From NCBI GenBank assembly GCA_002383495.1, contig DFZO01000022.1, forward strand, positions 4,465-68,464: a stretch of DNA of 64,000 nucleotides, written 5' to 3'. Positions within the stretch are counted from its first letter, which is position 1; every line of letters begins with the position of its first letter. Positions 1,557-57,939 of this stretch are shown in pieces. The DNA is from Syntrophaceae bacterium UBA4054 (GTDB taxonomy: Bacteria > Desulfobacterota > Syntrophia > Syntrophales > UBA4778). A model generated the notes under the pieces. That model was not told the DNA's origin and made no database searches. It saw nothing but the letters and a program-made list of their open reading frames with translations. The position numbers and the translations under genes are program-made.

Positions 1557-3140
1557 ATGGCCGTGTTCATGTCTTCGGCAGAGGCGGTTGATCTAATCAA
1601 ATCCGGGGACACAGTGGCAATGTCCGGATTTGTCGGAATGGGCCATCCGGAAGAGATATCAAAAGCCATGGAAAAGAAATTTCTGGAAACCGGTGAGCCA
1701 AGGGATTTGACGCTCACGTTCGGCGCCAGCCAGAACGACGGTAAATCGAACTGGGGATTGAACCGATGGGCGAAGGAGGGCCTTGTGAAACGGGTGGTGT
1801 CCGGTCACTGGGGACTTCAGCCCGATCTGATCAAGATGGCCGTCGAGAACAAGATCGAGGCCTACAATATACCCCAGGGCGTCATCATGCACCTTTACAG
1901 GGCCATCGCCGGAAAGAAGCCCGGGATCATCACGCATGTGGGTCTGAAGACTTTTGTCGATCCGAGAGAAACCTGCGGCAGGCTGAACAGCATCAGTCAC
2001 GAGGAGTATGTCCGGCTGATGGAAATCGACGGCCGGGAATACCTCTTCTACAAATCCTTTCCCATTAACGTGTCGATCATCCGGGGCACGAGCGCGGACG
2101 AGAACGGGAACATCTCCATTGAGAAAGAAGGCATTTCTCTCGAGTTCCTGTGCCTGGCGCTTGCGGCCAAGGGATGCGGCGGAAAGGTGATCGTCCAGGT
2201 GGAAAGAATGGTCCAGGCCGGGTCGCTTCACCCCATGATGGTGAAAGTCCCGAGAGTGGCGGTGGACGCCGTCGTGATCGCAAAGCCGGAAAACCACTGG
2301 CAGATTCCCATGGCCGAGCCTTACAACCCGAGCCTGTCCGGAGAAGTGAGGATCCCGCTGAGCAAAGTGGAGCCGCTTCCGCTCAGCGAAAGAAAAGTGA
2401 TCTGCCGGAGATGCGCCATGGAGCTTATTCCCGATGCCGTCGTCAACCTCGGCATCGGCATGCCGACGGGGGTGGGTGTTGTATCGGCCGAAGAAGGTAT
2501 CAACCATCACATGACCATGACCGTTGAGCCGGGTGTAATCGGAGGCGTGCCGTTGGGTGGTCTCTATTTCGGGACGGCGATCAACCCGGAGGCTCTCATT
2601 GATCACCCGAACATGTTCGACTTTTATGATGGCGGAGGGCTGGATCTCGCCGTGCTGGGTCTGGCGGAAATGGATCAGTACGGCAACGTGAACGTCAGCA
2701 AGTTCGGTCCCCGCATTGCCGGTGCAGGAGGGTTCATCAACATCACCCAGAGCACGAAGAAGGTGGTCTTTTGCGGGACGCTGACGGCCGGTGGCCTCGA
2801 GATGGAAATCGGAGAGGGGAAACTGCGGATCCTGAAAGAGGGCAGGATCAAGAAATTCGTCGAAAAAGTTGAGCACATCACGTTCAGCGGCGACTACGGC
2901 CGCACCAGCGGCCAGCGGATACTTTACGTGACGGAACGGGCCGTGTTCGAGCTCCGGCCGGAGGGCGTCACCCTGGTCGAAATCGCCCCCGGTGTGGACC
3001 TGGAAAAGGATGTTCTGGCACAGATGAGCTTCAATCCCCTTGTGGCGAAAGACCTGAGGCTGATGGATGCCCGTATTTTTCAGGCGCAAACACCTATGGG
3101 TATCAAGGAGGAAATCCTCCAGAAAAACAATAAAAAGTAA
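1557..3140 (+). CDS. family I acyl-CoA:acetate/3-ketoacid CoA-transferase (YdiF-like, fused alpha/beta)
   Basis: 527-aa ORF with RBS AAAGGAGG 8 nt upstream. The N-terminus SAEAVDLIKSGDTVAMSGFVGMGHPEE is typical of YdiF-type CoA-transferases, and the length fits the family. Confidence 0.8.
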   Translation: MAVFMSSAEAVDLIKSGDTVAMSGFVGMGHPEEISKAMEKKFLETGEPRDLTLTFGASQNDGKSNWGLNRWAKEGLVKRVVSGHWGLQPDLIKMAVENKIEAYNIPQGVIMHLYRAIAGKKPGIITHVGLKTFVDPRETCGRLNSISHEEYVRLMEIDGREYLFYKSFPINVSIIRGTSADENGNISIEKEGISLEFLCLALAAKGCGGKVIVQVERMVQAGSLHPMMVKVPRVAVDAVVIAKPENHWQIPMAEPYNPSLSGEVRIPLSKVEPLPLSERKVICRRCAMELIPDAVVNLGIGMPTGVGVVSAEEGINHHMTMTVEPGVIGGVPLGGLYFGTAINPEALIDHPNMFDFYDGGGLDLAVLGLAEMDQYGNVNVSKFGPRIAGAGGFINITQSTKKVVFCGTLTAGGLEMEIGEGKLRILKEGRIKKFVEKVEHITFSGDYGRTSGQRILYVTERAVFELRPEGVTLVEIAPGVDLEKDVLAQMSFNPLVAKDLRLMDARIFQAQTPMGIKEEILQKNNKK

Positions 3141-3182
3141 TTCGGCTTTTGAGGAAAATGAAAAACGCAAGGAGGAGATAAA

Positions 3183-4664
3183 ATGGCGCTGAAGACGAGA
3201 GAAGAGTACATAAATTCACTGAAGGCCATGCGACCGAACGTCTATAAGTTCGGAGAGCTTATCGAGGACGTGACCGCGCATCCCGCGACGCGGCGCACCG
3301 TCGAGAGCCACGCCCGGGGCTTCGACGCATCCCACGATCCGAAATACGCCGATGATTTCACTGCGGTGTCGACCTTTCCGGAACTGGCCGGGAAAGGAGA
3401 AAAGATCCACCGGTGGAACGGCATGATGGAGTCGGTGGACGACGTAGTCGCGAACTCCAGACTTAAGCGGTGGATGTACCGTTTCACGGGAAGCTGCACC
3501 GGCGGTCTCTGCGTGGGGTGGAATGCCCAGAACGTCCTGTGGAATGTCACGGCGCTCGTTGACGGGGAGCAGGGAACCCGCTATCAGGAACGCCTTCGGA
3601 AGTGGATTATTGGTGCACAGGAGAAAGGCCTGGTAGTGGCGGGAGGATTGACCGACGCCAAAGGTGACCGCAGCCTGCGGCCCTCACAGCAGGAAAACCC
3701 CGACAGCAACGTGCATATCAAAGAGGTCCGGGAAGACGGGATCGTCATCAGCGGTGTAAAGGCCATGATCTGCGGCGTCGCTGCGTCGAATGAGATATTC
3801 ATTCTGCCGGGAAGCGCTTACAGGGAAGAAGATCGGGATTACGCGCTGGCCTGTGTCGTGCCGCGCGACATCGACGGCCTGACCATCGTGGAAACCCGCC
3901 GTCCGAGCGACGCCAGGGAATTCGAGGATGGATGGGACATTCCCGAAACCGGAATCACGCAATCCTATCTCTTTTTCGACAACTGTTTCGTGCCGAACGA
4001 AAGGGTCTTCATGTGCGGGGAGTCCAAGTACAGCGCGAAGGTCATAGAGTACTTCACGGCCAACTACAGGGCCTGCATCGGCGCCTGCGTGGCCGGACAG
4101 GGCGACGTTATGATAGGAGCGGCCGCCCTCATGGCCAGGCTGAACGGACTTGCGGCGGGCACTTTTGCGAACAAAATGGTGGATATGGCCGTGAACAATG
4201 AGACAACCTACGGCATGGGAATAGGAGCAATGGTCATCGGCAAAAAAGGTCCCGGCGGGATGTGGGTCTCCGATTCCCTGCTGGCCCACGCCAACAAGGT
4301 TCATGTGGCGACGCTCCCCTATGAAACCAAACGTATATGTCAGGACATTGGAGGAGGGATCGTAGAGACCGGCTGTTTCCCCTCCTGCAAGGATTTCTCG
4401 GATCCCGTCCTCGGGCCCATGATCGCCAAAGCCGTGAAAGCCAGCGGCAAATACAGCGCGGAAGCGAGAGCCCGCGCGGCGAGGCTTGTCGAGTGGCTGA
4501 CCCTCGGCGCCGGTGTCCCGGGCTGCATGCACGGCGGCGGATCTCCCGACGGTGCAAAGCTCGTCGTAAGGGCGCTCACGCCGGTCAATCAGTTCGCCGA
4601 GCTTGCGAGGACCATCGCCGGGATTCAGGAGGATGTCCCGGAACCGGAGAAAAAGAAAAAATAG
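3183..4664 (+). CDS. 4-hydroxybutyryl-CoA dehydratase / vinylacetyl-CoA isomerase family (AbfD/HpaB superfamily) protein
   Basis: 493-aa ORF with RBS AAGGAGGAG. The N-terminus KTREEYINSLKAMRPNVYKFGELIEDVTAHP and the length match the AbfD/HpaB fold family. Substrate unknown. Confidence 0.7.
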   Translation: MALKTREEYINSLKAMRPNVYKFGELIEDVTAHPATRRTVESHARGFDASHDPKYADDFTAVSTFPELAGKGEKIHRWNGMMESVDDVVANSRLKRWMYRFTGSCTGGLCVGWNAQNVLWNVTALVDGEQGTRYQERLRKWIIGAQEKGLVVAGGLTDAKGDRSLRPSQQENPDSNVHIKEVREDGIVISGVKAMICGVAASNEIFILPGSAYREEDRDYALACVVPRDIDGLTIVETRRPSDAREFEDGWDIPETGITQSYLFFDNCFVPNERVFMCGESKYSAKVIEYFTANYRACIGACVAGQGDVMIGAAALMARLNGLAAGTFANKMVDMAVNNETTYGMGIGAMVIGKKGPGGMWVSDSLLAHANKVHVATLPYETKRICQDIGGGIVETGCFPSCKDFSDPVLGPMIAKAVKASGKYSAEARARAARLVEWLTLGAGVPGCMHGGGSPDGAKLVVRALTPVNQFAELARTIAGIQEDVPEPEKKKK

Positions 4665-4687
4665 AGGTGCAGAAAGGAGAATTCTTA

Positions 4688-5827
4688 ATGAACTTTCAAC
4701 TCACTGAAGAACATCAATTGATCCGCGCCGGCGTCAGGGAATTCTGCGGAAAATTTGTGGATCCCGTTGCCAATGAAATCGATCAGGAGCCCCGTTTCCC
4801 GTCTGAAATCGTGAAAAAACTGGCAGAGCAGGACTGGCTCGGGATTCCCTATCCGGCTCAATACGGCGGTGCCGGATCCGACTACCTGAGTTACATCATT
4901 GTCGTGGAGGAACTGTCCCGCTCCTGCGCGACCACGGGTTTCACCCTGGAGTGCCATACCTCCCTGGCCTCCTATCCGATTTTCAAGTTCGGAACGGAGG
5001 AGCAGAAACAGAAATACCTGGTGCCGCTCTGCAAGGGAGATATGCTGGGGGCCTTTGCTCTCACAGAGGCCGGCGCCGGGACCGACGCGGGGGCGGCGAC
5101 CACCGTCGCGGTTTTGGATGACGGCGAATGGGCTCTGAACGGCAGCAAGATATTCATCTCCAACGCCCCGGTCGCCGGAATGACTATTGTGTTTGCGATG
5201 ACGGACAAGACGAAGGGGACAAAGGGGCTGAGCGCCTTCATCGTCCCCGCGGGTTCTCCGGGCCTCAAGATCGGCAGGCATCTCAATAAAATGGGCATCC
5301 GGGGATCTCTAACCGCCGAAGTTCTTCTTCAGGACTGCCGGATTCCGAAAGACAGTTTGCTCGGGCAGGAAGGACAGGGATTCAGGATCGCCATGATGAC
5401 CCTGGATGGGGGGAGAATCGGCATTGCGGCGCAGGCCGTAGGAATCGCGCAGGCCGCGCTGGACGAATCGATCCGTTACGCGAAGGAGCGAGTTCAATTC
5501 GGGAAGCCGATTGCTTCTCTGCAGGCGATCCAGTGGATGATCGCCGACATGGCTACCGAGGTCGAGGCATCGAGATTCCTCACCTATCACGCGGCATGGT
5601 GCTGCGATCAGGATCTCTCCTACAGCAAGGAAGCGGCCATGGCGAAGCTATTCGCGTCCGAGACGGCCTCCCGCCAGACCAACAGGGCGATTCAGATCCA
5701 CGGCGGCATCGGGTACATCAAGGAACAGAAGGTCGAGCGCCTGTACAGGGATGCGAAGATCACGGAGATTTACGAGGGAACCTCCGAGGTCATGAGAATG
5801 CTCATCGCCGGCAGCCTGCTGCGCTGA
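4688..5827 (+). CDS. acyl-CoA dehydrogenase (short/medium-chain, butyryl-CoA dehydrogenase-like)
   Basis: The true start is MNFQLTEEHQLIRAGVREF, with RBS AAAGGAGA upstream. The listed ORF 4337..5827 carries a spurious N-terminal extension that overlaps the previous gene. Typical ACAD motifs are present (GLSAFIV, YEGTSEV). Confidence 0.9.
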   Translation: MNFQLTEEHQLIRAGVREFCGKFVDPVANEIDQEPRFPSEIVKKLAEQDWLGIPYPAQYGGAGSDYLSYIIVVEELSRSCATTGFTLECHTSLASYPIFKFGTEEQKQKYLVPLCKGDMLGAFALTEAGAGTDAGAATTVAVLDDGEWALNGSKIFISNAPVAGMTIVFAMTDKTKGTKGLSAFIVPAGSPGLKIGRHLNKMGIRGSLTAEVLLQDCRIPKDSLLGQEGQGFRIAMMTLDGGRIGIAAQAVGIAQAALDESIRYAKERVQFGKPIASLQAIQWMIADMATEVEASRFLTYHAAWCCDQDLSYSKEAAMAKLFASETASRQTNRAIQIHGGIGYIKEQKVERLYRDAKITEIYEGTSEVMRMLIAGSLLR

Positions 5828-5848
5828 ACAGATTGTGGGAGTTTGAAG

Positions 5849-6634
5849 ATGCTGAACATCATCACTTGTTTCAAATGGGTGATCGATGAGGCCGATATCA
5901 AAGCGGATGCGGCAACCCGAAAACTTCTTTTCGGCCGCGCGGGTTACAAGATCAGTGCCTATGACCGCCATGCCATTGAAGAGGCTGTCCGTTTCCAGGA
6001 ACAACATGGGGCTTCCGTTGCCGCCGTGACGGTTGCCCCTCCTTCCGCAAAGAAGTGCCTCAAGGATGCCCTTTCCCGAGGGCCGGATTCGGCCTGTTTT
6101 GTCAACGATCCGTCTTTCCTGGACCTGGATCCTTCCCAGACCTCATCGATTCTGGCCGCCGCCGTCAGAGGGCGGATTAAATTCGACCTCATTATATGTG
6201 GTGAGGGCTCCGACGATCTTTATGCCCAGCAGGTCGGTCCTGCTCTTGCGGAAAGGCTGGGAATTCCTTGCGCGACCTGTGTCAGCAAACTCACGTACGC
6301 GGAAGACGAAAAGCATATCATCGCAGAGCGCAGGCTGGATGACGGCATGGAGACGGTTCTGGTGCCCTTGCCGGCCCTTGTCAGTGTTTTGCCGGGAATC
6401 AACACACCGCGGATTCCAACGCTCAAAGAGGTCCTCGGCGCTGCAAAAAAAGAGATCTTCAATGTAGCCCTTGAAGAACTGGGCGATATCCCGGGACCGT
6501 ACTTGAAGACAGTAGAGGTCGTCGCAGCCGCCATGGACCGCCGCGGAATCAGGTTTTCCGCCGACGAGGAAGGCGTTCGATCCGCCGTAAACGCCCTGTT
6601 CAAAGAGGGCGTCCTTTCGCAGGGAGTGTTGTGA
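5849..6634 (+). CDS. etfB: electron transfer flavoprotein beta subunit (EtfB/FixA-type)
   Basis: MLNIITCFKWVIDEADIK... is typical of ETF-beta. A TTG at 5843 is an alternative start. Confidence 0.9.
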   Translation: MLNIITCFKWVIDEADIKADAATRKLLFGRAGYKISAYDRHAIEEAVRFQEQHGASVAAVTVAPPSAKKCLKDALSRGPDSACFVNDPSFLDLDPSQTSSILAAAVRGRIKFDLIICGEGSDDLYAQQVGPALAERLGIPCATCVSKLTYAEDEKHIIAERRLDDGMETVLVPLPALVSVLPGINTPRIPTLKEVLGAAKKEIFNVALEELGDIPGPYLKTVEVVAAAMDRRGIRFSADEEGVRSAVNALFKEGVLSQGVL

Positions 6635-6635
6635 A

Positions 6636-7592
6636 ATGGATGGAATCTGGATTTTTGCGGAAAGACAGGAACAGACGCTGGAACTTCTGAATCCCGGCAG
6701 GAGCCTTGCCGACATGATGGGTGTGAAACTGGCGGCGTTTGCGGCCGACGGCGGGCTGGCTCCGGAGTATATTGCACATGGAGCTGACGAAGTCTTTGTG
6801 CTTCCTCCTCTGCTCCCGGGCCAGCCGCTTGAATCTTACGTTGCGGTGCTGGCGGATGAGGCGCGAAAGAGAACCCCCGGGGTGTTTCTCATCGGCGCGA
6901 CCCCGAGGGGAAAAGAAATTGCAGCCCGGCTGGCTGCCCGGCTGAATACGGGTCTGTGCAGCGGCTGTACCGGTCTTCATCTAAGGGACGGAAGCAACGT
7001 GCTGGAGATGGAGCGACTGATGTTCGGGGGAAAAGCCGTTCAAAAGGTTCTCTGCTCCGCCCGTCCGCAGATGGCGACCGTTCTTCCGGGGACGTTTGAG
7101 CCTGCCGTGTGCCTGCCGGACAGGAAAGGTGTTGTTGTCGAGGTGCATTCCGCGTCTTCCTCTGAGGTGCGGATCGTGAGCAGATCGGCGAGGCATCGTG
7201 AAGGGGCGGACGTGACGGAGGCGAAAATCATTGTCTGCGTCGGCCGGGGCGTGGAGAGCGAAGAGCACATGGAACGGGTGCGAGAACTGGCTCGCGTGGT
7301 AGGCGGCGAGATTGCCTGCACCCGACCCATTGCGGAAGAGTGTCAATGGCTTCCGGAAGAGGTCTACTTAGGCATTTCGGGCAAAAGGGTAAAACCGGAT
7401 CTCTATATCGGTCTTGGTGTGTCCGGCCAGATACAGCACGTGGCCGGCATCCGGGAAAGCAAGGTGATCTTCGCCGTCAACCGCGATGAAAATGCACCTA
7501 TCTTCGATGCGGCGGACTACGGCATTGTCGGGGACATGTGCCGGGTTGTTCCCCTATTGATAGACGAGCTCGGAAGGCTCCTGAAAGTCTGA
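6636..7592 (+). CDS. etfA: electron transfer flavoprotein alpha subunit (EtfA/FixB-type)
   Basis: The start is 1 nt after the etfB stop. A C-terminal FAD domain is present (GISGKRVKPDLYIGLGVSGQIQHVAGI). Confidence 0.9.
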   Translation: MDGIWIFAERQEQTLELLNPGRSLADMMGVKLAAFAADGGLAPEYIAHGADEVFVLPPLLPGQPLESYVAVLADEARKRTPGVFLIGATPRGKEIAARLAARLNTGLCSGCTGLHLRDGSNVLEMERLMFGGKAVQKVLCSARPQMATVLPGTFEPAVCLPDRKGVVVEVHSASSSEVRIVSRSARHREGADVTEAKIIVCVGRGVESEEHMERVRELARVVGGEIACTRPIAEECQWLPEEVYLGISGKRVKPDLYIGLGVSGQIQHVAGIRESKVIFAVNRDENAPIFDAADYGIVGDMCRVVPLLIDELGRLLKV

Positions 7593-7603
7593 GGGCGGCG
7601 GGC

Positions 7604-8899
7604 ATGGCGAACGACAAATTCACGGCGATCGTTGTCGGCGCGGGTCCGGCGGGAAGCACCGCCGCTTTGGTGTTGGCAAGGGCGGGCCATGAGGTTCTCC
7701 TCATTGAAAAGGGAGCGGTTCCCGGAGCGAAGAATATGTTCGGAGGCCGGCTGTACAGCCACGCCCTGAACCGCATCATCCCTGAATTCTGGGAAAGAGC
7801 CCCGGTTGAGCGACCGGTGGTTCGGGAGACCCTCACGCTTTTGCACGACGGGCGAAGCGTTTCGCTGAACGTCCGGAACCTGGATTGGGTTTCACCGCCT
7901 CACCATTCGTTCACGCTCCACAGAGCCGAGTTCGATGCATGGCTGGCCTCGGAGGCTGAAGAAGCTGGAGCCATGCTCGCCTGCAGCATACGCGTGGACG
8001 ATCTGCTTATGGAAAACGGCAGAGTGATCGGTATACGTGCAGGCGAAGATGAGATGTTTGCCGATGTCGTCATCGCCGCCGATGGGGTGAACTCCCTGCT
8101 TGCTCAGAGGGCGGGGTTGGCAGGGATGGCTTCTCCGAGACAGGTGGCAACGGGGGTCAAACAGATCATTGAACTGCCTTCAGACGTCATCCGTCGACGC
8201 TTTCAGCTTGAAGGAAACAACGGTGCCGCCCAGTTGTTTGTGGGCGATTGCACCGGCGGAATGCAGGGCGGCGGTTTTGTTTACACCAACAGGGAAAGCG
8301 TCTCATTGGGTCTTGTCATCAATGCGAATGAGCTGCGGAAAACGCAGAGAAGCCTTTTTGAATTGATCGAAGATTTCAAAATGAACCCCCACATAGCTCC
8401 CCTGTTGGAGGGTGGGGATGTGGGGGAGTATTCCGCCCATCTGATACCCGAAGCGGGGCTGGCCATGATGCCCCGGGTATTCGGCCAAGGGATTCTCGTG
8501 GCGGGCGATGCCGCGGGTTTTGCTCTCAATCTGGGCTATGTCGTACGCGGAATGGACTTTGCGATCGCATCCGGGGAAGCCGCCGCTAAAACGGTCATAC
8601 AGGCGAAAAAACACAATGATTTTTCGCGGCGGGGTCTGAGCTTTTATCAGAAATATCTCAGGGAAAACTTCGTTCTCAGAGACTTGGCGGCTTATCGCAG
8701 GGCTCCGGAGTTCATGGAAAACTGCAGACTATTTGAAACTTATCCTGATCTGATCACATCGCTCATGGCGGAGGTCTTTACCGTGTCCGGCTCTCAGCCG
8801 GTCCATCTTTTTACGAAAATACTCAGCCGTGTCAGACAAAGCAGGGTCAGCCTGGCAAAACTGTTTATTGACGGCTGGAGGGGAGCGACATGGCTTTGA
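7604..8899 (+). CDS. fixC: FAD-dependent ETF:quinone oxidoreductase-like protein FixC
   Basis: The start MANDKFTAIVVGAGPAGSTAALVLARAG carries a GxGxxG FAD fold. The listed ORF 7538.. is an upstream extension that overlaps etfA. Confidence 0.85.
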   Translation: MANDKFTAIVVGAGPAGSTAALVLARAGHEVLLIEKGAVPGAKNMFGGRLYSHALNRIIPEFWERAPVERPVVRETLTLLHDGRSVSLNVRNLDWVSPPHHSFTLHRAEFDAWLASEAEEAGAMLACSIRVDDLLMENGRVIGIRAGEDEMFADVVIAADGVNSLLAQRAGLAGMASPRQVATGVKQIIELPSDVIRRRFQLEGNNGAAQLFVGDCTGGMQGGGFVYTNRESVSLGLVINANELRKTQRSLFELIEDFKMNPHIAPLLEGGDVGEYSAHLIPEAGLAMMPRVFGQGILVAGDAAGFALNLGYVVRGMDFAIASGEAAAKTVIQAKKHNDFSRRGLSFYQKYLRENFVLRDLAAYRRAPEFMENCRLFETYPDLITSLMAEVFTVSGSQPVHLFTKILSRVRQSRVSLAKLFIDGWRGATWL

Positions 8900-17765: not shown

Positions 17766-18878
17766 TTATCCCTTCAGGATGGTTTTCAGGGCCGCGAGCA
17801 GCCTCGCGACATTTTCCTTCCTTGCCGTATGCCCCATCAGACCGACGCGCCAGATTTTTCCTGCCAGGGGGCCCAGGCCGGCACCGACTTCAATTTTGAA
17901 TTCACTTCGCAGGCGCCGCCGGACGGACAGTTCGTCCACGCCTTCGGGAACCAGCACGGCATTAAGCATGGGGAGGCGGTGAGGCTCATCGACCAGCATC
18001 TTCAGACCGAGCTCTTCCAGGCCGTTGACCAGCACCTGGTGATTCTCCCTGTGACGCTGGAAGACCTTCTCCTGTGTTTCCTCCAGGATCAGGAGGAGCG
18101 CCTGGTAAAGACCGTAGATCATGTTCACGGGCGCCGTATGATGATAAACGCGGTTTGTCCCCCAGTAGTTGGCGATGAGCGAGAGATCGAGGTACCAGTT
18201 GGGGACTTTCGTTTTCCGTCCGTTGAGCCGGGCCATCGCCTTTTCCGAAAAGGAGAGGGGCGCCAGTCCGGGCGGGCAGGACAGGCATTTCTGAGTCCCG
18301 CTGTAAATCGCGTCGATGTTCCAGTCGTCCGTCCTGACGTCCACGCCGCCCAGGCTTGTGACGGTATCAACAAGGTAAAGCGTGTCCGAATTCCTGAGCA
18401 GGCCGCCGACTTCAGCGACCGGGTTGAGCACGCCCGTGGAGGTTTCGGCGTGGACGATCGCCGCGATCTTGTATCCGCCCTTCCGAATCTTCTTTTCAAC
18501 CTCTTCGACGATCACCGGGGTCCCCCATTCAAATTCCAGCGCGTCCACCTGTGCTCCCAGCCTTTCCGCCACATCCTTCATCCTCCGTCCGAAAACGCCG
18601 TTGACGGCGATGAGGACTTTATCCCCCGGCTCCACGAGGTTTACGAAACAGGCCTCCATTCCGGCGGAGCCCGTGCCGGATAAAGGCAGCGTCAATTTAT
18701 TGTTGGTGTTCATGATCTTCTGAAGCATTTCCTTGAGGCCGTCCATTATTTTCAGGAAATAGGGGTCCAGATGCCCGAGGGTTTTCAGGCTCAGGGCGGC
18801 GTAGACTTCCGGAGGCACGCAAGAGGGTCCGGGTCCCATCAGCAACACTTCCTCAATCCCCTTCAACTGATTTTCCAT
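17766..18878 (-). CDS. class V aminotransferase (serine-pyruvate / alanine-glyoxylate type)
   Basis: PLP-lysine context SGTQKCLSCPPG. RBS AAGGAG lies 7 nt before MENQLKG. The ORF extends to 18899. Confidence 0.85.
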   Translation of the reverse strand: MENQLKGIEEVLLMGPGPSCVPPEVYAALSLKTLGHLDPYFLKIMDGLKEMLQKIMNTNNKLTLPLSGTGSAGMEACFVNLVEPGDKVLIAVNGVFGRRMKDVAERLGAQVDALEFEWGTPVIVEEVEKKIRKGGYKIAAIVHAETSTGVLNPVAEVGGLLRNSDTLYLVDTVTSLGGVDVRTDDWNIDAIYSGTQKCLSCPPGLAPLSFSEKAMARLNGRKTKVPNWYLDLSLIANYWGTNRVYHHTAPVNMIYGLYQALLLILEETQEKVFQRHRENHQVLVNGLEELGLKMLVDEPHRLPMLNAVLVPEGVDELSVRRRLRSEFKIEVGAGLGPLAGKIWRVGLMGHTARKENVARLLAALKTILKG

Positions 18879-18909
18879 AGGGGTCTCCTTTCGGATCATT
18901 TAAGGGAGG

Positions 18910-27348: not shown

Positions 27349-29979
27349 TTACTCCCGTTCACCAATCAGGATGAAAGGCGCCCAGAAGAATGGATGAGAG
27401 GCGCCGGTTTGAATCTTCTTGTCCCGTCCGGTGATCTTGACGCCGCGGCTTAAATCAGTGGAGGCCAGGCTTTGGTTTTTCAATTCCTGCTTGGCCAGCC
27501 TGAGCGCCTCTTCTCTGGACGTTCCGGGCTTGAGATGCGAGTAGAAGCTCTTCATCAGGACGGCCGTAGAATTCGATTCCACGCTCCAGAGGCTCACGAT
27601 AACCGATTTGGACCCCGCGAGCATGAAGGCGCGGCTTAAGCCCACGATTCCCTCTCCGGCAATCTCTTTTCCCAGGGCCGTCTTGCAGGCCGACAGGACA
27701 ACGGCATCGGCGTTGAGTTTGAATTCCAGGATCTCGCTCATCTTGAGGAAGCCGTCCTCAGGGCTGCGGTTCCCCGGCTGGCTCAGAACCAGCGCCGGTT
27801 CCAGGATATAAGGAATGTCGCCGCTCAAAAGACCGTGGGTGGCAAAATGGATGAACCGGTAACTGCCGAGATCGGATTTTAAAAGCTCGCTCTTGGAGGC
27901 ATCCATATCCAGCTTGATGTTGGGGTCATGGGTTTTGTACCCGAAGAGCGCGCCTATTTTCAGGACCTCATCGCGGGTCTCGGGCAGACGCTGCAAAGAG
28001 AAGCCGCTGCGGACCAGGGCGCTGCGCAAATTGAGGCCAGGCGTCTGATCGGCCGATGCCAGGACGATGTTGTTGGACTTTCTATGGCTGTAACGCGCAT
28101 CCGAATCCTCATAGACCGGATCGCCGAGTGCAAACAGGGGCCGGGATAATTTGGGACTCTCTTTGAACTGCCGCATGGTCGCCATGACCGAGGCGGACGG
28201 ATAATAGCTGATCTTGTATTTTTCTCCCAGGTATTGAATCGCATTTTTTGTTCTGCCCGCCGTCAATGCCTCGAAGGGAATCATGTTCAGCACGCCGTCG
28301 GGGGTGATGATGATGTTTTTGTCGGAATCTATCCGGCTGAGAGCTTCTCCCAGCAGGAGCCTGCCCAGGGCCCGCCCTTTCTCCGGGTCATAGGCATCCA
28401 GCCGGTCCGGATTTTCAAGCCCGCTTCGAAATTCCCCGACTTTCCGGATGAGTTCCTCCCGGCTCACGGCGATTTCGATGGCCGAAGGTTTCTTGCCTTT
28501 TTCTATGATCCAGAGATAGGTCTTCCCGGGGTTGACCTTGTATGCGAGGAGCACCTCATTGGCCCGCAGCGGGATATTCCCTGCCATGACCGGCTCGGGA
28601 TAGCGGATGGAGGCATAATCCGGATACTCTTTTCGCAGCTTGGCGATCAATTCATCCAGTTCGCGTTTCGATTTTTTCAGGAGCTCTCGCTGTGCTTCCG
28701 ACTGGCCGCTTCCGGAGGACTGGATCGAGTCGACGGTGCTGAGCAATCGCTGCTCCTGTTCGGCCAACTCGCGGGGAATCCGGTCGGCGAGGGCGGCCGT
28801 TCTGGCTTTGGAGAGCAGTTCGAGAAAAGACCGGGCCTTGGTGCTTTCAGCGTAAAAGAAGGCCACTTCCACGGGAGTGAGGCCCGCTTTGATAAAGCGC
28901 GGATCCAGGCGGATATCGTCCTGCGTCCGGCCGTCTGCCGTGAGCAGGATATCGATGGCATGCTCATAGGCGGCGATTTTATTGGCCAGGAACAAGGACC
29001 GGAACTCTGTCGAACTCAGGCTGCCTCTCAAATCCTCAATGAACTTGATGGCGGTGTTGTAGTAGAGCAGCGCCTGGGCATTGCGGTTCTGCTCTTCATT
29101 CAAAAGCCCCAGGCCATAATTGGCGTACATCTGTTTCTCGGGGTAGTGCAGGTCCATGACGTCCAGGAGCCCAAGCCCTTCCCGGAAGGACCGGGCCGCC
29201 TCGTTGTATTTTTTCAATGACACCAGACAAAAACCGATGTTGTTGAGGATGTCCACGGTATCGGACGTGTTGTAACTTTTCCGGGCAAGTTCGAGGGCAC
29301 GCTGATAATGGACGACCGCCTCCTGATAACGGCCGAGGCCGAAAAGGGTCGTGCCCAGGGAGGAATAGACCGACTGCTTCAGCTTGTCGTCCTTGTAGCT
29401 GTCGATGCCTGAAAGGGACCTGGTGAAGATGTCCAGTGCCTGGGACAAACGGCCTTGCTGCGCGAGGGTCTCCCCCATGCTGAGCGCAATGAGCGGATGC
29501 CCGCCCTTCGCGGACTCACGATTGCCCGTCGGGGCCGCCGCCAGAATCTCTGCGGCCTTGTCCGTATCCCCGATTTTCTTGTAGCAATCGGCCAGTCCGA
29601 CCGTTGCCAGGACGATCCCCTCCGGATAGCGGCTGCTTTTGGCGGCGGATAACGATTGATTGAAATAGGACAGCGCCTTGTCGTACTCGTTGCGATCGAG
29701 GTAGGCCTTGCCCAGATAGCGGCAAATATCGGAGGTCTTTTCCCCATTGCCGGAGTAGAACGTCAGAGCCTCGCGCATGGAGAGCAGAAACTTGTCGAAG
29801 GAACCTTCGCGAAGGTAATCCAGGCCTTCCTGGGTGAGGATATCGCCCTTGCTCTTGGTGGCGGTCAGGAAGAGGGGGTGGTAGTTGGCAAGGCCTTCGG
29901 ACTGGGTTAACCCGTGACTGAGTCCGCAACCGCTGGTGCAGATGACCAGAAAAATCAGCAGCCATCGTTTCATCAGCAT
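27349..29979 (-). CDS. lipoprotein TPR-CHAT protein (caspase-like protease domain)
   Basis: Lipobox LVICTSGCG. The N-terminal half is TPR-rich. The C-terminal CHAT domain carries a His/Cys dyad context (FIHFATHGLL and AVVLSACKTALG). Confidence 0.85.
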   Translation of the reverse strand: MLMKRWLLIFLVICTSGCGLSHGLTQSEGLANYHPLFLTATKSKGDILTQEGLDYLREGSFDKFLLSMREALTFYSGNGEKTSDICRYLGKAYLDRNEYDKALSYFNQSLSAAKSSRYPEGIVLATVGLADCYKKIGDTDKAAEILAAAPTGNRESAKGGHPLIALSMGETLAQQGRLSQALDIFTRSLSGIDSYKDDKLKQSVYSSLGTTLFGLGRYQEAVVHYQRALELARKSYNTSDTVDILNNIGFCLVSLKKYNEAARSFREGLGLLDVMDLHYPEKQMYANYGLGLLNEEQNRNAQALLYYNTAIKFIEDLRGSLSSTEFRSLFLANKIAAYEHAIDILLTADGRTQDDIRLDPRFIKAGLTPVEVAFFYAESTKARSFLELLSKARTAALADRIPRELAEQEQRLLSTVDSIQSSGSGQSEAQRELLKKSKRELDELIAKLRKEYPDYASIRYPEPVMAGNIPLRANEVLLAYKVNPGKTYLWIIEKGKKPSAIEIAVSREELIRKVGEFRSGLENPDRLDAYDPEKGRALGRLLLGEALSRIDSDKNIIITPDGVLNMIPFEALTAGRTKNAIQYLGEKYKISYYPSASVMATMRQFKESPKLSRPLFALGDPVYEDSDARYSHRKSNNIVLASADQTPGLNLRSALVRSGFSLQRLPETRDEVLKIGALFGYKTHDPNIKLDMDASKSELLKSDLGSYRFIHFATHGLLSGDIPYILEPALVLSQPGNRSPEDGFLKMSEILEFKLNADAVVLSACKTALGKEIAGEGIVGLSRAFMLAGSKSVIVSLWSVESNSTAVLMKSFYSHLKPGTSREEALRLAKQELKNQSLASTDLSRGVKITGRDKKIQTGASHPFFWAPFILIGERE

Positions 29980-40007: not shown

Positions 40008-40247
40008 TTTTTGTGCCTTTCGAATAACTATGGGATTGTGTGAAGATGAAAATTGAGGTACGCTAATACCCATTCAAGGGCATCGATGGCATAACGTGAT
40101 ATCCGGCATAGAGACAAGCACCTCAATTTTGCGTGATTCTATAATAGTTCAAACGAGTTGTCAAACATTCAATGGCCTTGTGATGTACTTTTGCATGAAA
40201 AAGACAGGGTGGGTCTCTTTTTAATAGCACAGGAAGGGAGTTTTGAA

Positions 40248-40799
40248 ATGGCAAGAACTATCATTGTGCTATGTCTTTTTATCGGTCTTTTCCTGATGAC
40301 CGGTGAGGTTGCGGGAAAGTCATACTACCGCTGGACGGATGCTGACGGGGTTACGCAGTTGAGTGATCAGCCTCCAGCGAACAGGAGTTATGAGCAGGTT
40401 CTGATACCGGATGAGAGCCGGGAGGGAGGGGCTGTCCAATCATCCGCCGAAAGTGCAAAAAACGGGAAAGAGGATAAAGCACCGACGGAGGAACAGGAAA
40501 AGACAACAAAAAAGCAGGATGATGTCGTTAAAGATCTTGAGGAGATGGCAAAGCATTATGAGGAGGAGGGCGGGATAACGGCAGGGAAGCTGGCCGCGCT
40601 GAAAGAGGCCGCCGTTGTCGTGAAGAAGGCAAAAATGGACGGAAGCGAAGCAGACGAAGCATTTTACCTCAAGATCGAGGAACTGGTGAGGTCCATCAAG
40701 AATCACACGCAGATCATCGGGAGGGTCCACAGGCTTTTGAATGAGGCCAAGGTCATGAAGGGCCTTGCCCCGCCCGCGAAACAGGAAGAGTCAGAATAG
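40248..40799 (+). CDS. secreted DUF4124 domain protein with acidic/lysine-rich C-terminal region
   Basis: Signal peptide followed by YYRWTDADGVTQLSDQPP (DUF4124 signature). RBS GGAAGGGAG. Confidence 0.7.
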   Translation: MARTIIVLCLFIGLFLMTGEVAGKSYYRWTDADGVTQLSDQPPANRSYEQVLIPDESREGGAVQSSAESAKNGKEDKAPTEEQEKTTKKQDDVVKDLEEMAKHYEEEGGITAGKLAALKEAAVVVKKAKMDGSEADEAFYLKIEELVRSIKNHTQIIGRVHRLLNEAKVMKGLAPPAKQEESE

Positions 40800-40839: not shown

Positions 40840-40870
40840 AAAAAAAAGCAGCCGGAAGGCTGCTTTTTTT
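40840..40870. terminator. bidirectional intrinsic terminator (A8-GCAGCC-GGAA-GGCTGC-T7)
   Basis: It lies between the convergent genes ending at 40799 (+) and 40892 (-). Confidence 0.8.
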
Positions 40871-40891: not shown

Positions 40892-41203
40892 CTATCCGCA
40901 GCTGCAGGAACCGCAGCCGGCGGCCGCCAGGTTGGCGGTGATGTAATAACCGGACCCTCTGGGGGTTTCGATGAAATCCACTTTGATGGGTTTCACTTCT
41001 TCAAACAATTCCCGGTTGATCATGAAGGTCAGGCCCTTTTCCTTGAATACCTCGTCGTTTTCCTGAAGCTCATCCAGAGCCATTCCCATGGAAGGACCCG
41101 ATCACCCGCCCTCGTTCAGAAGCAGGCGGATGGATGGAATCTCTTCTCTGTCCTTGAAATAGTCTTTGAGCATCTCGATCGCCTTATCGGAAATTTCGAT
41201 CAT
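40892..41203 (-). CDS. HesB/IscA-like protein with in-frame UGA (probable selenocysteine) at 41104..41102
   Basis: ATG 41203 has RBS AAGGAG. The translation is MIEISDKAIEMLKDYFKDREEIPSIRLLLNEGG-[TGA]-SGPSMGMALDELQ...AAAGCGSCSCG. The UGA sits where IscA/HesB proteins carry Cys in GGC(S/A)G. The ORF track shows only the 65-aa downstream part. Confidence 0.7.
41060..41093 (-). promoter_or_regulatory. candidate bacterial SECIS hairpin downstream of the UGA
   Basis: The mRNA reads UGA-N8-UUCC-AUGGGAAUG-GCUC-UGGAU-GAGC-UUCA-GGAA. It has a lower 4-bp stem, an internal loop, an upper 4-bp stem and a G-containing apical loop beginning 26 nt after the UGA. Confidence 0.45.
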
Positions 41204-41289
41204 GTGATTCTCCTTTGCTGATTTTTTATGGCTATAACCTATGCATTCCCCGGCGCCCTGTCAAACATATTTAATGACCCGGCGCCCCT

Positions 41290-41889
41290 TTACCTTCTTT
41301 TCAAAATGACTTTGCCTCCTTGATGATCAATGGAAACCTGAAAGTCCGCGAGAAAACTCATTCCCAGCAATCCGTCAAAATCCTTGAAGACATTGGCCTG
41401 GGGGTTTATCACGGCCTGGACGTTTTCCCTGGACGCCGAACCAAGCTCGATTTTATCGATAATCGTATATCGCCCTTCAACCTCGCCTCCGGCTGTCCTC
41501 AGCTTGACGCGTTTGTCGCCTCCCCGGTCGCCCTGATTTATTTTCTGTGAAAGCTCCTGGGAGATGATGACAAGGGCCGCGCCCGTGTCAAAAACCATTC
41601 TTGCCCGCACGGAACCATTGATGACGACATCCACGAGCATGATTCCCGAAGGCGTTCTGAAAAAGGGGACATGGAACTCGTTTGTCAATCCGCTGCCGGT
41701 CTGCGACGACGCCGGGCTGAAAATCTTTTTTGCCCCGCTCCGGTGTGACGGGGGGATATTCAGGAGGTCGTCCGAAAAGGTGACCGTGCCGTCATCGTCC
41801 ACCCATTTGTAGATCTCCGCATTGGCGGAGGAGAAGAAAAAGGGCAGTACGAAGACCATGAACAAGAAGTATTTTTTTATTCTCTTCAT
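41290..41889 (-). CDS. secreted DUF4124 + retropepsin-like (clan AA) aspartic protease
   Basis: The signal peptide MKRIKKYFLFMVFVLPFFFSSANA is followed by IYKWVDDDGTVTFSD. The protease core is MVFDTGAALVIIS (D-T/S-G). The ORF extends to 42129. Confidence 0.7.
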   Translation of the reverse strand: MKRIKKYFLFMVFVLPFFFSSANAEIYKWVDDDGTVTFSDDLLNIPPSHRSGAKKIFSPASSQTGSGLTNEFHVPFFRTPSGIMLVDVVINGSVRARMVFDTGAALVIISQELSQKINQGDRGGDKRVKLRTAGGEVEGRYTIIDKIELGSASRENVQAVINPQANVFKDFDGLLGMSFLADFQVSIDHQGGKVILKRR

Positions 41890-42107
41890 TTGTGTTTTCC
41901 GATGCTTGATATCTATTCCTATCTCAATCCGTCTATCCTTGGCAAGGATTATCGAAGGATCATGACGAGGAAGAATTTTGTAGTTTTCATGAACATCCAA
42001 ATCATTTATAGTATACCGTCGATCCTGCGCGGAGAAGCGCGGTAGCTGCGTGAAAGAAACGATTACAAGAACCTCTTTTGATGTCCGGAAAAGAAAGGAG
42101 AAATCCG

Positions 42108-43376
42108 ATGTTTGATTACATGCTGACAAAGGAGCAGATCAGGATCAGGGATGAGGCGAGGGATCTCGTGAAGTGGGTGCCGCGCCAGATGATCCTGGAC
42201 ATGGACACGGACAAGATCAAATTCCCCAAGGAATTCCTTAAGGAAGCGGCCCGGCGGAACCTCATGGGCTGCCGCTACCCGAAGAAGTGGGGCGGTCGGG
42301 ACATGGACTGGGTCACCACCTGCGTGGTGATGGAAGAGGTGGGCACGCTCGGCTATGAATTCGCCTGTGTCTTCGGCGTGGGGGCGGAACTGGTCTGCGA
42401 CGCCGTCATCCTCCACGGAACAGACGAACAGAAGGAGAAGTACGTGAGACCCCTCCTGAGGGGGGACCTCTTCGCCGCCGAATGCCTGACGGAGCCGAGA
42501 GGCGGGTCCGACTTCTTCGGCGCCACCACGAAGGCCGAGGATAAAGGGGATCATTTTATTCTGAACGGCCAGAAACGCTTCATCGTCGGCGCGGAGGGCG
42601 CGGACTTTTTTCTCGTGTACGCCCGCACGGCCCCCGGGGCAAAGCCTCAGGAATCCATCACCTGCTTCATCGTGGACCGGGGTCCCGGCGTGGAGACCAA
42701 GTATCTTTACGGCCTTCTCGGCTGCCGGGGCGGCGGGACCGGACGCATCATCTTTCGGAACGTGAAAGTTCCCAAGGAGAACATCATCGGGAAACTCAAC
42801 GGGGCCTACGACGTTTTCAATACCATGATGATCCCGGAACGGCTGGGGACGGCGGCCATGACCATCGGCGCCGCCCGCCCTGCTCTTGACATCGCGACGG
42901 AGTACACGTCCCGCAGAAAGGCCTTCGGCCAGGTGATCAACCGTTTTCAGGGGGTGAGCTTTCAGGTGGCCGAGGCAGCCATTCTCCTGGACGCGTCGCG
43001 AGCCATGGCCTACGTGACGGCCCGGGCCGTGGACGCCGGCGTGGACATGGATCGAATCCGCCGCATGGTCTCGGAGAGCAAGAAGTTCATCACCGAATCC
43101 TGTCAGAAGGCGGTCCACAACGCCATGCAGGTCATGGGCGGGATCGCATACACCAATGTATTCCCCATCGAGCGGATCTACCGCGATATCCGTCTCGCCT
43201 CCATCTGGACCGGGACGAGCGAGGTTATGGCCATGGTTGCAGGTCATGAATGGTACCGGGAATATTTCAAGGAGAAGGCGAAGCGTCTGGCACGGGATTT
43301 CGAGGCGGACGCCGAGGAAGCCCATTCCGAAGAGAAGTGTTATGATGATGAGGATATGTGGAAGAAGGGCTGGTGA
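42108..43376 (+). CDS. acyl-CoA dehydrogenase with about 45-aa charged C-terminal extension
   Basis: Starts MFDYMLTKEQIRIRDEARD with RBS AAAGGAG. The ACAD core runs to ...IWTGTSEVM, followed by the tail EWYREYFKEKAKRLARDFEADAEEAHSEEKCYDDEDMWKKGW. Confidence 0.85.
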   Translation: MFDYMLTKEQIRIRDEARDLVKWVPRQMILDMDTDKIKFPKEFLKEAARRNLMGCRYPKKWGGRDMDWVTTCVVMEEVGTLGYEFACVFGVGAELVCDAVILHGTDEQKEKYVRPLLRGDLFAAECLTEPRGGSDFFGATTKAEDKGDHFILNGQKRFIVGAEGADFFLVYARTAPGAKPQESITCFIVDRGPGVETKYLYGLLGCRGGGTGRIIFRNVKVPKENIIGKLNGAYDVFNTMMIPERLGTAAMTIGAARPALDIATEYTSRRKAFGQVINRFQGVSFQVAEAAILLDASRAMAYVTARAVDAGVDMDRIRRMVSESKKFITESCQKAVHNAMQVMGGIAYTNVFPIERIYRDIRLASIWTGTSEVMAMVAGHEWYREYFKEKAKRLARDFEADAEEAHSEEKCYDDEDMWKKGW

Positions 43377-55800: not shown

Positions 55801-56586
55801 ATGAGAGGCATTGATTTTGATTTCAAAGTCAGCATGGTTGCAGATTTGATTGTTCAGTCGAAGAATATCGTCGTTTTCACGGGGGCCGGTGTGAGCACGG
55901 AGTCGGGGATACCGGATTTCCGAAGCCCCGGAGGAATCTGGACCCGGTTTGATCCTGAAGACTTCACGATCGACCGATTCATGTCCAGCCGGGAGACGCG
56001 TAAAAAGACATGGGAACTCCTCGGCGGGAGCGGCCTGATCGCTGACGCCCTGCCGAACAGGGCACACCATGCTGTCTATGAACTGGAGCTGCTTGGAAAG
56101 CTGGAGTGTGTCATCACCCAGAATATCGACAACCTTCACCAGAAGGCGGGATGCTCTCCCGACAGGGTATTTGAAGTTCATGGGAATATGCAGTGGGTGC
56201 GATGTCTGGGCTGCGATGCGCGATTCACCATGGAGACGATCCAGCGGCGCCTGGGGGAGAACATCCAGGTCCCCGAGTGCGAGCATTGCTCAGGCATCCT
56301 GAAGCCGGATGTGATCTACTTTGGTGAGATGTTGCCTCAGGAGACGCTGGATCATGCCATCCACCACTCCCGGAACTGCGATCTCTTCATCGTCATCGGT
56401 TCCTCCCTTTCCGTCTATCCGGCTGCGTACATGCCTACCCATGCCCTTGAAAGCGGCGCCAAGCTGGTGATCATCAATAACACCAGGACCTTTTGCGATG
56501 ACCGGTCGGAAGTGGTGATCAACAGCATGGCAGGTGTCGCGATGGAAAGAATTCTGGAAGATACGAAAAGAAAGCTCATGCACTGA
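55801..56586 (+). CDS. cobB: NAD-dependent protein deacylase (sirtuin, CobB-type)
   Basis: GAGVSTESGIPDFRSPGG, QNIDNLH, catalytic HG, a Zn ribbon CLGC...CEHC, and GSSLSVYPA. Confidence 0.9.
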   Translation: MRGIDFDFKVSMVADLIVQSKNIVVFTGAGVSTESGIPDFRSPGGIWTRFDPEDFTIDRFMSSRETRKKTWELLGGSGLIADALPNRAHHAVYELELLGKLECVITQNIDNLHQKAGCSPDRVFEVHGNMQWVRCLGCDARFTMETIQRRLGENIQVPECEHCSGILKPDVIYFGEMLPQETLDHAIHHSRNCDLFIVIGSSLSVYPAAYMPTHALESGAKLVIINNTRTFCDDRSEVVINSMAGVAMERILEDTKRKLMH

Positions 56587-57126: not shown

Positions 57127-57939
57127 GTGTGTCTTATTCTTTTTTCCTTTAAACAGCATCCGCGCTACCCGTTGATCATCGCTGCGAACCGGGACGAGTT
57201 TTATAACAGGGGCTCCTCTCCCGCGGCTTTCTGGGACGATGAGCCGGGGATGCTTGCCGGGAAGGATCTCGTCGCCGGAGGCACCTGGTTCGGCGTTACC
57301 CGATCCGGCCGGATAGCGGCGATCACCAATTACCGCGAGCCGGGCTTTCATAGAATGGACGCGCCGTCGAGGGGCGACCTCGTCACCGGCTATCTGCGCG
57401 GCGCGGAGGCTCCAGAGGAATATCTGAAAAAACTGGATAAGGAAGCGGGCCGCTATAACGGCTTCAGTCTGATTCTGGGGGAGCCGGGGAATCTCTACTA
57501 TTTTTCGAATCGCCGTGAGGGCTTCCAGAGGCTGGCTCCGGGGCTCTACGGTTTGAGCAATCACCTCCTCAACACGGCATGGCCGAAGGTTGAGCGGGGA
57601 AAGCGTGCACTCGCGGGAATTCTCTCAGGCGGCGGAGACCCCGATCCGGAAGAACTCTTCCATATTCTGGCAGACCGGTCGCGCCCTCCCGACGACCATC
57701 TCCCCCATACGGGGGTCGGACTCGAATGGGAACGCATTCTGTCTTCTCTTTTCATCACGAGCCCCGTTTACGGGACGCGCTCCTCAACGGTCCTCCTGGT
57801 CCATGGAGAGGGAAGAGTCACGTTTGTGGAAAAGGTTTTCAATTCGGCGCCGGAACCGCTGCAGGTGACACGGCATGAATTTGATATCGAGCGGACGGGG
57901 GACAAGGGCAAGACGCGGCATGACGGGCAAGGGCGATAG
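57127..57939 (+). CDS. NRDE-family (TANGO2/DUF833) protein
   Basis: GTG start. The N-terminal (M)CLILFSF and the signature AANRDE are present. Confidence 0.8.

Follow-up and report, generated by a model that had tools for sequence, protein, structure and literature searches.

An IscA/HesB-family gene of Syntrophaceae bacterium UBA4054 with an in-frame UGA that is very probably read as selenocysteine

HesB-like proteins are an established family of prokaryotic selenoproteins. The 2006 survey of bacteria counted 11 members, including those of Syntrophus aciditrophicus, Syntrophobacter fumaroxidans, Desulfovibrio, and Geobacter (Zhang et al., PMC1794560), and a 2026 review lists the family with the motif UxGP, where U stands for selenocysteine (Sec), and the model TIGR01911 (PMC13188914). 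The DNA analyzed here is a stretch of 64,000 nucleotides (the window) from Syntrophaceae bacterium UBA4054 (assembly GCA_002383495.1, contig DFZO01000022.1, positions 4,465 to 68,464 of the forward strand), in which an earlier note, made from the sequence alone, had pointed to an IscA/HesB-like gene on the minus strand interrupted by an in-frame UGA. The gene is very probably a genuine Sec-encoding gene, recoded through a selenocysteine insertion sequence (SECIS) hairpin that lies inside the coding sequence. The same note had stated that HesB-like selenoproteins were already surveyed, mainly for deltaproteobacteria, and both publications bear this out.

The locus is best explained as one monocistronic gene that encodes a selenoprotein of 103 residues in the IscA/HesB family (NF038090). 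Read directly from the sequence, a frame of 103 codons plus TAG runs through window positions 41203..40892 on the minus strand, with a single in-frame TGA at 41104..41102. The ATG at 41203..41201 opens a run of 33 sense codons (MIEISDKAIEMLKDYFKDREEIPSIRLLLNEGG), which is followed by the TGA, 69 further sense codons, and the TAG at 40894..40892; the peptide after the TGA is SGPSMGMALDE...AAAGCGSCSCG. The list of open reading frames (ORFs) holds just a 65-amino-acid (aa) piece, 40892..41089, starting at Met38. The coordinates, the start, the AAGGAG, the N-terminal peptide, the SGPSMGMALDE and CGSCSCG segments, and the 65-aa fragment given in the earlier note all match the sequence. The features of the gene are as follows.

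41210..41215, minus strand: Shine-Dalgarno-like AAGGAG, 6 nucleotides (nt) 5' of the start codon, read from the sequence.
40892..41203, minus strand: complete selenoprotein coding sequence with U as codon 34, IscA/HesB family, NF038090 subfamily (from translation, profile hidden Markov models, and identity to published proteins).
41102..41104, minus strand: in-frame UGA, selenocysteine 34, aligned with the first IscA ligand Cys (GGCSG) (from codon conservation and PDB alignments).
41084..41096, minus strand: SECIS hairpin 1 (H1), +8..+20 from the U of the UGA, a 4-bp stem NCCY/RGGN with a 5-nt loop (RNAalifold consensus).
41066..41082, minus strand: SECIS hairpin 2 (H2), +22..+38, stem UGGCUC/GAGYYA with the apical loop UGGAU at 41076..41072, a putative SelB-binding element.
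40898..40915, minus strand: C-terminal Cys cluster C97-G-S-C100-S-C102 (CxxCxC), the presumed remaining ligands (from alignment).

The membership of the protein in the family was established with profile searches, in which the UGA was entered as Cys (C). The read-through product scores 29.6 bits on the Pfam family PF01521 (Fe-S_biosyn; gathering threshold, 26.3) and 115.4 bits on the NCBIfam model NF038090, "IscA_HesB_Se" (cutoff, 85), with residues 1 to 102 aligned to positions 1 to 101 of the 101-position profile. The 65-aa fragment has no match to PF01521, scores 60.1 bits on NF038090, which is below the cutoff, and passes no NCBIfam model. The model TIGR01911 (HesB_rel_seleno; cutoff, 66.35) is not reached, with 42.6 bits in a partial alignment of residues 2 to 76; the UxGP motif of HesB-like selenoproteins (PMC13188914, Table 1) is present as U34-S-G-P37. 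Solved IscA structures align with the protein over nearly its full length (Aquifex 1nwb, E = 2e-9; Escherichia coli 1s98/1r94) and place the UGA on the first ligand Cys, in GGCSG of 1nwb and SGCSG of 1s98. The assignment to IscA/HesB made in the earlier note is thus upheld by PF01521, NF038090, and the PDB structures of IscA, and so is its placement of the UGA at the first ligand Cys: the alignment with Cys-containing homologs has Cys in that column, in agreement with the structures. At the C terminus, C97, C100, and C102 are invariant columns in the protein alignment (A1), and the cluster is kept, with small variation in spacing, in all listed relatives. Its motif is C-G-S-C-S-C, compared with the C-G-C among the three ligand cysteines of A-type carriers, and the first ligand is Sec. 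The window protein shares the fold and domain of IscA, SufA, and ErpA and, by its scores on their equivalog models (given below), is not their ortholog.

Relatives found by protein search fall into two classes, namely, about 18 full-length proteins of 101 to 108 aa and about 80 clusters of 61 to 68 aa that cover the C-terminal 60% only, the second class being the signature of a family that is routinely truncated at an in-frame stop. Among the full-length proteins, 14 have Cys and 4 have "W" in the column of the UGA. A scan of species-representative genomes (one genome per species) yielded at least 565 relatives, the best of which is 63% identical to the window protein; among the best 80 of these, which were taken for a check of the codon at the UGA site, the codon is TGA in 79 and TGT in 1. 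The relatives are nearly all metagenome-assembled genomes (MAGs) labeled Syntrophales, Syntrophaceae, Smithella, Syntrophorhabdus, Desulfobacteraceae, Desulfatiglandales, or "Deltaproteobacteria," and even a metagenome scan that was seeded with Cys forms returned mostly Sec forms. Genomes and metagenomes together supplied 156 distinct related loci, of which 144 are Sec forms with TGA and 12 are Cys forms with TGT or TGC. Across the 144 distinct Sec forms, which are only 48 to 65% identical, the position of the TGA codon does not change, and codon-position conservation of the coding type is present on both sides of it. The recurrence of the same split and the same TGA codon, with a protein conserved on both sides, in 144 distinct sequences places the frame far beyond chance.

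TGA differs by one base from TGC and from TGT, but a mistake in sequencing or assembly is hard to reconcile with these counts. In L001 to L004, which are independent assemblies (JGI and ENA) of this species or a sister species, with 98% protein identity over the C-terminal fragment, the codon is always TGA, as it is in 79 of the 80 other species in the codon check, and the probability of an error is negligible.

The strong excess of Sec over Cys forms in the NF038090 clade (144:12) is an observation in its own right. A further one comes from the Desulfatiglandales MAG contig CAXXXE010000006.1, where a Sec copy (TGA; L073:3001-3276) and a Cys copy (TGT; L075:3001-3276) lie about 57 kb apart; the pair resembles the Sec/Cys isoform pairs of methanogens, which are used according to selenium supply. 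In the Cys copy, the stem of the hairpin described below is lost (GCG for Ala).

The four "W" proteins (P0001, P0004, P0005, and P0022; loci L005:386-691, L172:301-606, and L173:112-423) are ENA-derived and raise the question of whether the UGA might be read through but not as Sec, either because the organism assigns UGA to Trp or Gly or through near-cognate suppression that inserts Trp or Cys. Some ENA pipelines do translate relatives with W at the UGA site. Three of the four proteins (P0001, P0005, and P0022) were checked in the DNA, and all three have an ordinary TGA; the stored protein is not reproduced under translation table 11. The W at the Sec position is a database artefact, the product of translating very short contigs (601 to 1,455 bp) with UGA as Trp, and it hides selenoproteins. 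In the window itself, 20 of the 41 credible genes end in TGA, which makes it the commonest stop; TGG occurs 153 times as a codon, and an internal TGA occurs in none of the other genes. Since TGA is a normal stop in these 20 genes, the genetic code is standard. A mechanical search for other UGA-interrupted genes in the window gave 116 candidates, and those inspected were adjacent genes in the same frame or out-of-frame noise, none of them credible. Moreover, relatives that lack the UGA have Cys in this column, not Trp or Gly, and the SECIS-type hairpin that follows the UGA is conserved and specific to the UGA forms. Read-through with an amino acid other than Sec is accordingly a very unlikely account of the gene.

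The hairpin was examined against the published criteria for bacterial SECIS (bSECIS) elements, which specify an apical loop of 3 to 9 nt with G in one of its first two positions, usually followed by G or U, an upper stem of 4 to 16 bp, a distance of 16 to 37 nt between UGA and loop, and a minimum free energy (MFE) of -7.5 kcal/mol or lower (PMC13188914). All of these features are found in H2, which has the 5-nt loop UGGAU with GG at loop positions 2 and 3, a stem of 5 to 6 bp, and a spacing of 25 nt, counted with the UGA at 0..+2 and the loop starting at +28. With the window sequence, the two-hairpin consensus has a fold energy of -9.5 kcal/mol, and local MFE folds reach -9.7 to -9.9 kcal/mol. 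The RNAalifold consensus of the family consists of two tandem hairpins, with pairing of +8..+11 with +17..+20 in H1 and of +22..+27 with +33..+38 in H2 (loop UGGAY). The earlier note had described a SECIS-like geometry with a G in the apical loop some 26 nt after the UGA, and this description holds, with the loop 25 to 26 nt downstream. It had also drawn a single two-stem hairpin at 41093..41060, of which the upper stem-loop, 41081..41067, is indeed conserved family-wide; the lower stem (UUCC/GGAA plus UGG/UCA) forms in the window species and is species-specific, with no support as a family consensus from RNAalifold.

Conservation of H2 at the RNA level is pronounced. The hairpin sits in a near-invariant 15-mer, AUGGCUCUGGAUGAG (41083..41069, +21..+35), that encodes M-A-L-D-E and is exact in 126 of the 144 Sec forms; 17 of the others differ at the wobble base of the Asp codon, which is in the loop, and 1 differs at +21, outside the stem. 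Accordingly, the loop is UGGAU in 127 Sec forms and UGGAC in 17. At the synonymous sites of the 15-mer, Ala is GCU, Leu is CUG (where six codons are possible), and Glu is GAG in 144/144 sequences each, whereas the gene's other wobble positions are close to random. The 12 Cys forms have the same amino acids there but use the codons GCG, GCC, or GCA, UUG or UUA, and GAA. As a result, the GCUC/GAG stem is intact in all 144 Sec forms and in 5 of the 12 Cys forms (Fisher p = 2e-9, for sequences that are not phylogenetically independent). In the alignment of 122 Sec-form sequences, the core pairs C25-G35, U26-A34, and C27-G33 of H2 are invariant, and the share of paired cells is 95.3% for the whole structure and 96.7% for H2, compared with 18 to 51% when the partners are slid by 1 to 3 columns. 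The closing pair of H1 is formed by the wobble positions of two Gly codons and varies in identity through compensatory changes (GC, 73; GU, 7; CG, 5; UA, 4; AU, 3; UG, 3; unpaired, 27); it is formed in 115 of 144 Sec forms and 5 of 12 Cys forms (p = 0.007, again for phylogenetically related sequences). One variant is of particular note: L172:400-465 encodes GLVQDE in place of GMALDE, with C25 changed to U (Ala to Val) and Glu uniquely encoded by GAA rather than GAG. The resulting U25-A35 pair replaces C25-G35, a compensatory change that keeps the hairpin and its GGA-containing loop. Selection on the SECIS hairpin at the RNA level is confined to the Sec forms.

Five of the Cys forms (L137, L166, L168, L169, and L171) keep both an intact GCUC/GAG stem and a UGGAY loop. 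They are consistent with a "fossil" SECIS left after a recent conversion of Sec to Cys, for which the HesB-like protein of Desulfitobacterium hafniense provides a precedent (PMC1794560, Fig. 4).

The same body of evidence bears on the simplest alternative, that the UGA is a true stop, which would make the locus either a pseudogene or a pair of small ORFs (33 and 65 aa) with no relation to each other. Gene callers in JGI, ENA, and NCBI give exactly this split, annotating a 33-aa ORF and an ORF of 63 to 65 aa in the DNA of the truncated relatives where they do not mistranslate the UGA as W, so the expectation of the earlier note that standard gene callers would misannotate the locus is realized in both ways. 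Met38, which is the conserved M of GMALDE, supplies an ATG for the 65-aa piece, but no ribosome-binding site (RBS) precedes it. A true stop would also have to be held at one codon in 144 distinct sequences with the coding pattern of conservation on both sides, within a single Pfam/NCBIfam domain that spans the TGA and of which neither half passes alone, and it leaves the freeze of synonymous sites 3' of the UGA unexplained. The alternative draws some support from the lack of Sec machinery in the window, discussed next, and is extremely unlikely overall.

Several results weigh against the reading of the locus as a SECIS-dependent selenoprotein gene of the IscA type. When the region is folded on its own, shuffled versions are just as stable (z = +0.76); single-sequence folding being uninformative, comparative analysis was used in its place. 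No SECIS or other relevant Rfam family was found, either in the whole window at gathering thresholds or at the locus at E values up to 10, where the two Rfam matches that did appear are chance matches to long noncoding RNAs. Most of H2 lies in codons of the conserved M-A-L-D-E, and some of its invariance reflects constraint on the protein. Just 12 Cys forms stand behind the contrast between Sec and Cys forms, and the sequences are phylogenetically related, so the p-values are not strict. The equivalog models for IscA, SufA, and ErpA (TIGR02011, TIGR01997, and NF010147) give 30.5 to 37.7 bits, far under their cutoffs of 117 to 181, and no isc, suf, or nif genes are adjacent to the gene, either in the window or in 80 related genome loci. 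The evidence for the biochemical role is homology. Finally, no selA, selB, selD, or tRNA-Sec was found in the 64-kb window (about 30 ORFs compared with Pfam; no tRNA whatever).

Neither were sel genes linked to the gene in the 80 related genome loci, or tRNAs present in the flanks of the first 60 related loci scanned. Because Sec machinery is absent from the window, the Sec-decoding trait of the organism is inferred. Related cultured species carry this trait (PMC1794560, Table 3), and S. aciditrophicus and S. fumaroxidans have SelD and many other selenoproteins (PMC1794560). A class-V aminotransferase at 17766..18899 was considered as a cysteine desulfurase or selenocysteine lyase and rejected, its best matches being transaminases of the aspartate-glyoxylate, pyridoxamine-pyruvate, and phosphonate types.

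Taken as a Sec-encoding gene, the locus suggests the following mechanism. Its basis in direct observation is the open frame, the place of the protein in its family, the column of Sec or Cys, and the constraint on the RNA; the steps below extend these observations. Conservation and the published bSECIS model indicate that UGA codon 34 would be recoded as selenocysteine during translation by a SECIS that lies inside the coding sequence, 3' of the UGA, and whose key part is probably the hairpin of 5 to 6 bp with its UGGAU loop 25 nt after the UGA. H2 would recruit the SelB-GTP-Sec-tRNA(Sec) complex to the ribosome. By homology, the product would adopt the fold of A-type Fe-S carriers, with Sec34 replacing the first cluster- or iron-ligating Cys (Cys35 of E. 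coli IscA) and the C-terminal CxxCxC providing the other ligands. Such a protein would take up iron or an Fe-S cluster and pass it on, or else perform a related thiol/selenol reaction. The specific assignment as an A-type carrier of Fe-S clusters or iron, in which Sec34 and the CxxCxC tail are the predicted ligands, has about an even chance of being correct.

A more distinctive role, which we regard as rather unlikely, is that the NF038090 clade is not an ordinary A-type Fe-S carrier but a functionally distinct small selenoprotein whose Sec34 and C-terminal CxxCxC make up a four-ligand site in one monomer, holding a cluster or a metal or serving as a selenol/thiol relay, with the two-hairpin SECIS as a clade-specific class in which H1 has a role of its own. 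If this were true, the Sec-to-Cys ratio of 144:12 would reflect a chemistry that truly needs selenium.

The HesB-like gene stands alone, with its own RBS and a strong terminator. The terminator is the one further feature that belongs to the locus:

40840..40870, annotated on the minus strand and reading on both strands: intrinsic terminator A7-GCAGCC-UUCC-GGCUGC-U8, directly after the stop codon (-25.0 kcal/mol on the minus strand, -20.5 kcal/mol on the plus strand).

From its position, this terminator could serve both the HesB-like gene and the convergent DUF4124 gene at 40158..40799. A scan for consensus promoter and terminator patterns reported nothing at the locus, missing this terminator, and no canonical sigma-70 promoter could be assigned. 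Proteins with a DUF4124 domain flank the gene on both sides (40158-40799, plus strand; 41290-42129, minus strand), and in the upstream protein a retropepsin-like aspartic protease domain (Asp_protease_2/gag-asp_proteas) is present as well. The flanking pair is conserved in the sister assemblies L001 to L004. Among the 80 other loci (L008 to L087), 27 have an RdgB/HAM1-like nucleoside triphosphate pyrophosphatase upstream and 24 have a TPR-repeat protein downstream, each encoded in the same orientation as the gene; in 21, a protein of about 130 to 170 aa that contains repeats of a CQLG(L/A)F motif is encoded downstream in the opposite orientation. These are the commonest neighbors, and none of the three adjoins the gene in the window. 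Thus, the neighbors are lineage specific and, with no Fe-S assembly or sel genes among them, give no clue to function.

Elsewhere in the window, positions 1557-8899 hold a cluster of genes for a CoA-transferase, an HpaB-family flavoenzyme, an acyl-CoA dehydrogenase, the beta and alpha subunits of electron transfer flavoprotein, and a flavin adenine dinucleotide-dependent oxidoreductase. This cluster looks like a module for fatty-acid or butyrate-type oxidation and electron transfer that is typical of syntrophs. Within it, a 496-aa ORF at 4337..5827 overlaps the previous gene, and its Pfam domains begin at residue 123, so the true start is probably further downstream. Other, unrelated genes encode an 876-aa TPR-CHAT protein (27349-29979, minus strand), a Sir2-family protein (55801-56586, plus strand), and a TANGO2-family protein (57127-57939, plus strand).

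The value of the locus is chiefly one of annotation. Reading the raw sequence recovers a selenoprotein that Prodigal-type callers split or mistranslate, and public protein collections hold dozens of clusters of 61- to 68-aa fragments of this NF038090-type family along with the few "W" mistranslations, which amounts to widespread misannotation. In biological terms, one ortholog is added and no new question is opened. The by-products are the Sec excess over Cys and a family-wide description of the SECIS, comprising the two hairpins, the 15-mer, the synonymous contrast between Sec and Cys forms, and the one compensatory variant.

Compared with known systems, the SECIS element resembles the consensus bSECIS (bSECISearch model, Zhang and Gladyshev; PMC13188914, Fig. 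2) in the loop, stem, spacing, and energy of H2. It differs in two respects: H1 (+8..+20) is a small independent hairpin at the place where one would look for a continuous lower stem, and the sequence is unusually rigid, with a near-invariant block of 15 nt, because the element overlaps the M-A-L-D-E codons. With IscA, SufA, and ErpA (1s98/1r94, 1nwb, and Thermosynechococcus elongatus 1x0g), the window protein has in common the PF01521 domain, an alignment over nearly the full length, and a Cys-containing tail; unlike them, it has Sec in place of Cys and a CxxCxC rather than a CGC tail and is encoded outside an isc or suf operon.

Within the HesB-like selenoproteins, the TIGR01911 family shares with the window protein the UxGP motif (here, U-S-G-P) and Sec at the conserved Cys position of HesB. 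The published sequences, which were taken from supplementary file 4 of PMC1794560, nevertheless include divergent members: those of Geobacter and Alkaliphilus have GFGUGGP cores and short CC or CCS tails and fall below the cutoffs of both NF038090 (36.5 and 65.5 bits, respectively) and TIGR01911 (30.1 and 55.1 bits). Since these members fail both models, the HesB-like selenoproteins are heterogeneous, and the window gene belongs to the NF038090 group. The published members of that group are the closest counterparts of the window protein, which is 48% identical to the HesB-like selenoprotein of S. aciditrophicus and 49% identical to that of S. fumaroxidans; both of these pass NF038090 as well (106.8 and 114.1 bits, respectively). 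All three have the GGU[S/A]GP core, the (M/L)ALDE segment, and a multi-Cys C-terminal tail, and their hosts are anaerobic syntrophic or sulfate-reducing deltaproteobacteria. The window gene is therefore an ortholog of a subfamily that has been in print since 2006 and that NCBI now curates under a name with "Se" in it; it is an already known selenoprotein and not a discovery. Nothing of substance sets it apart from the published pair, to which it adds a further ortholog from an uncultured lineage.

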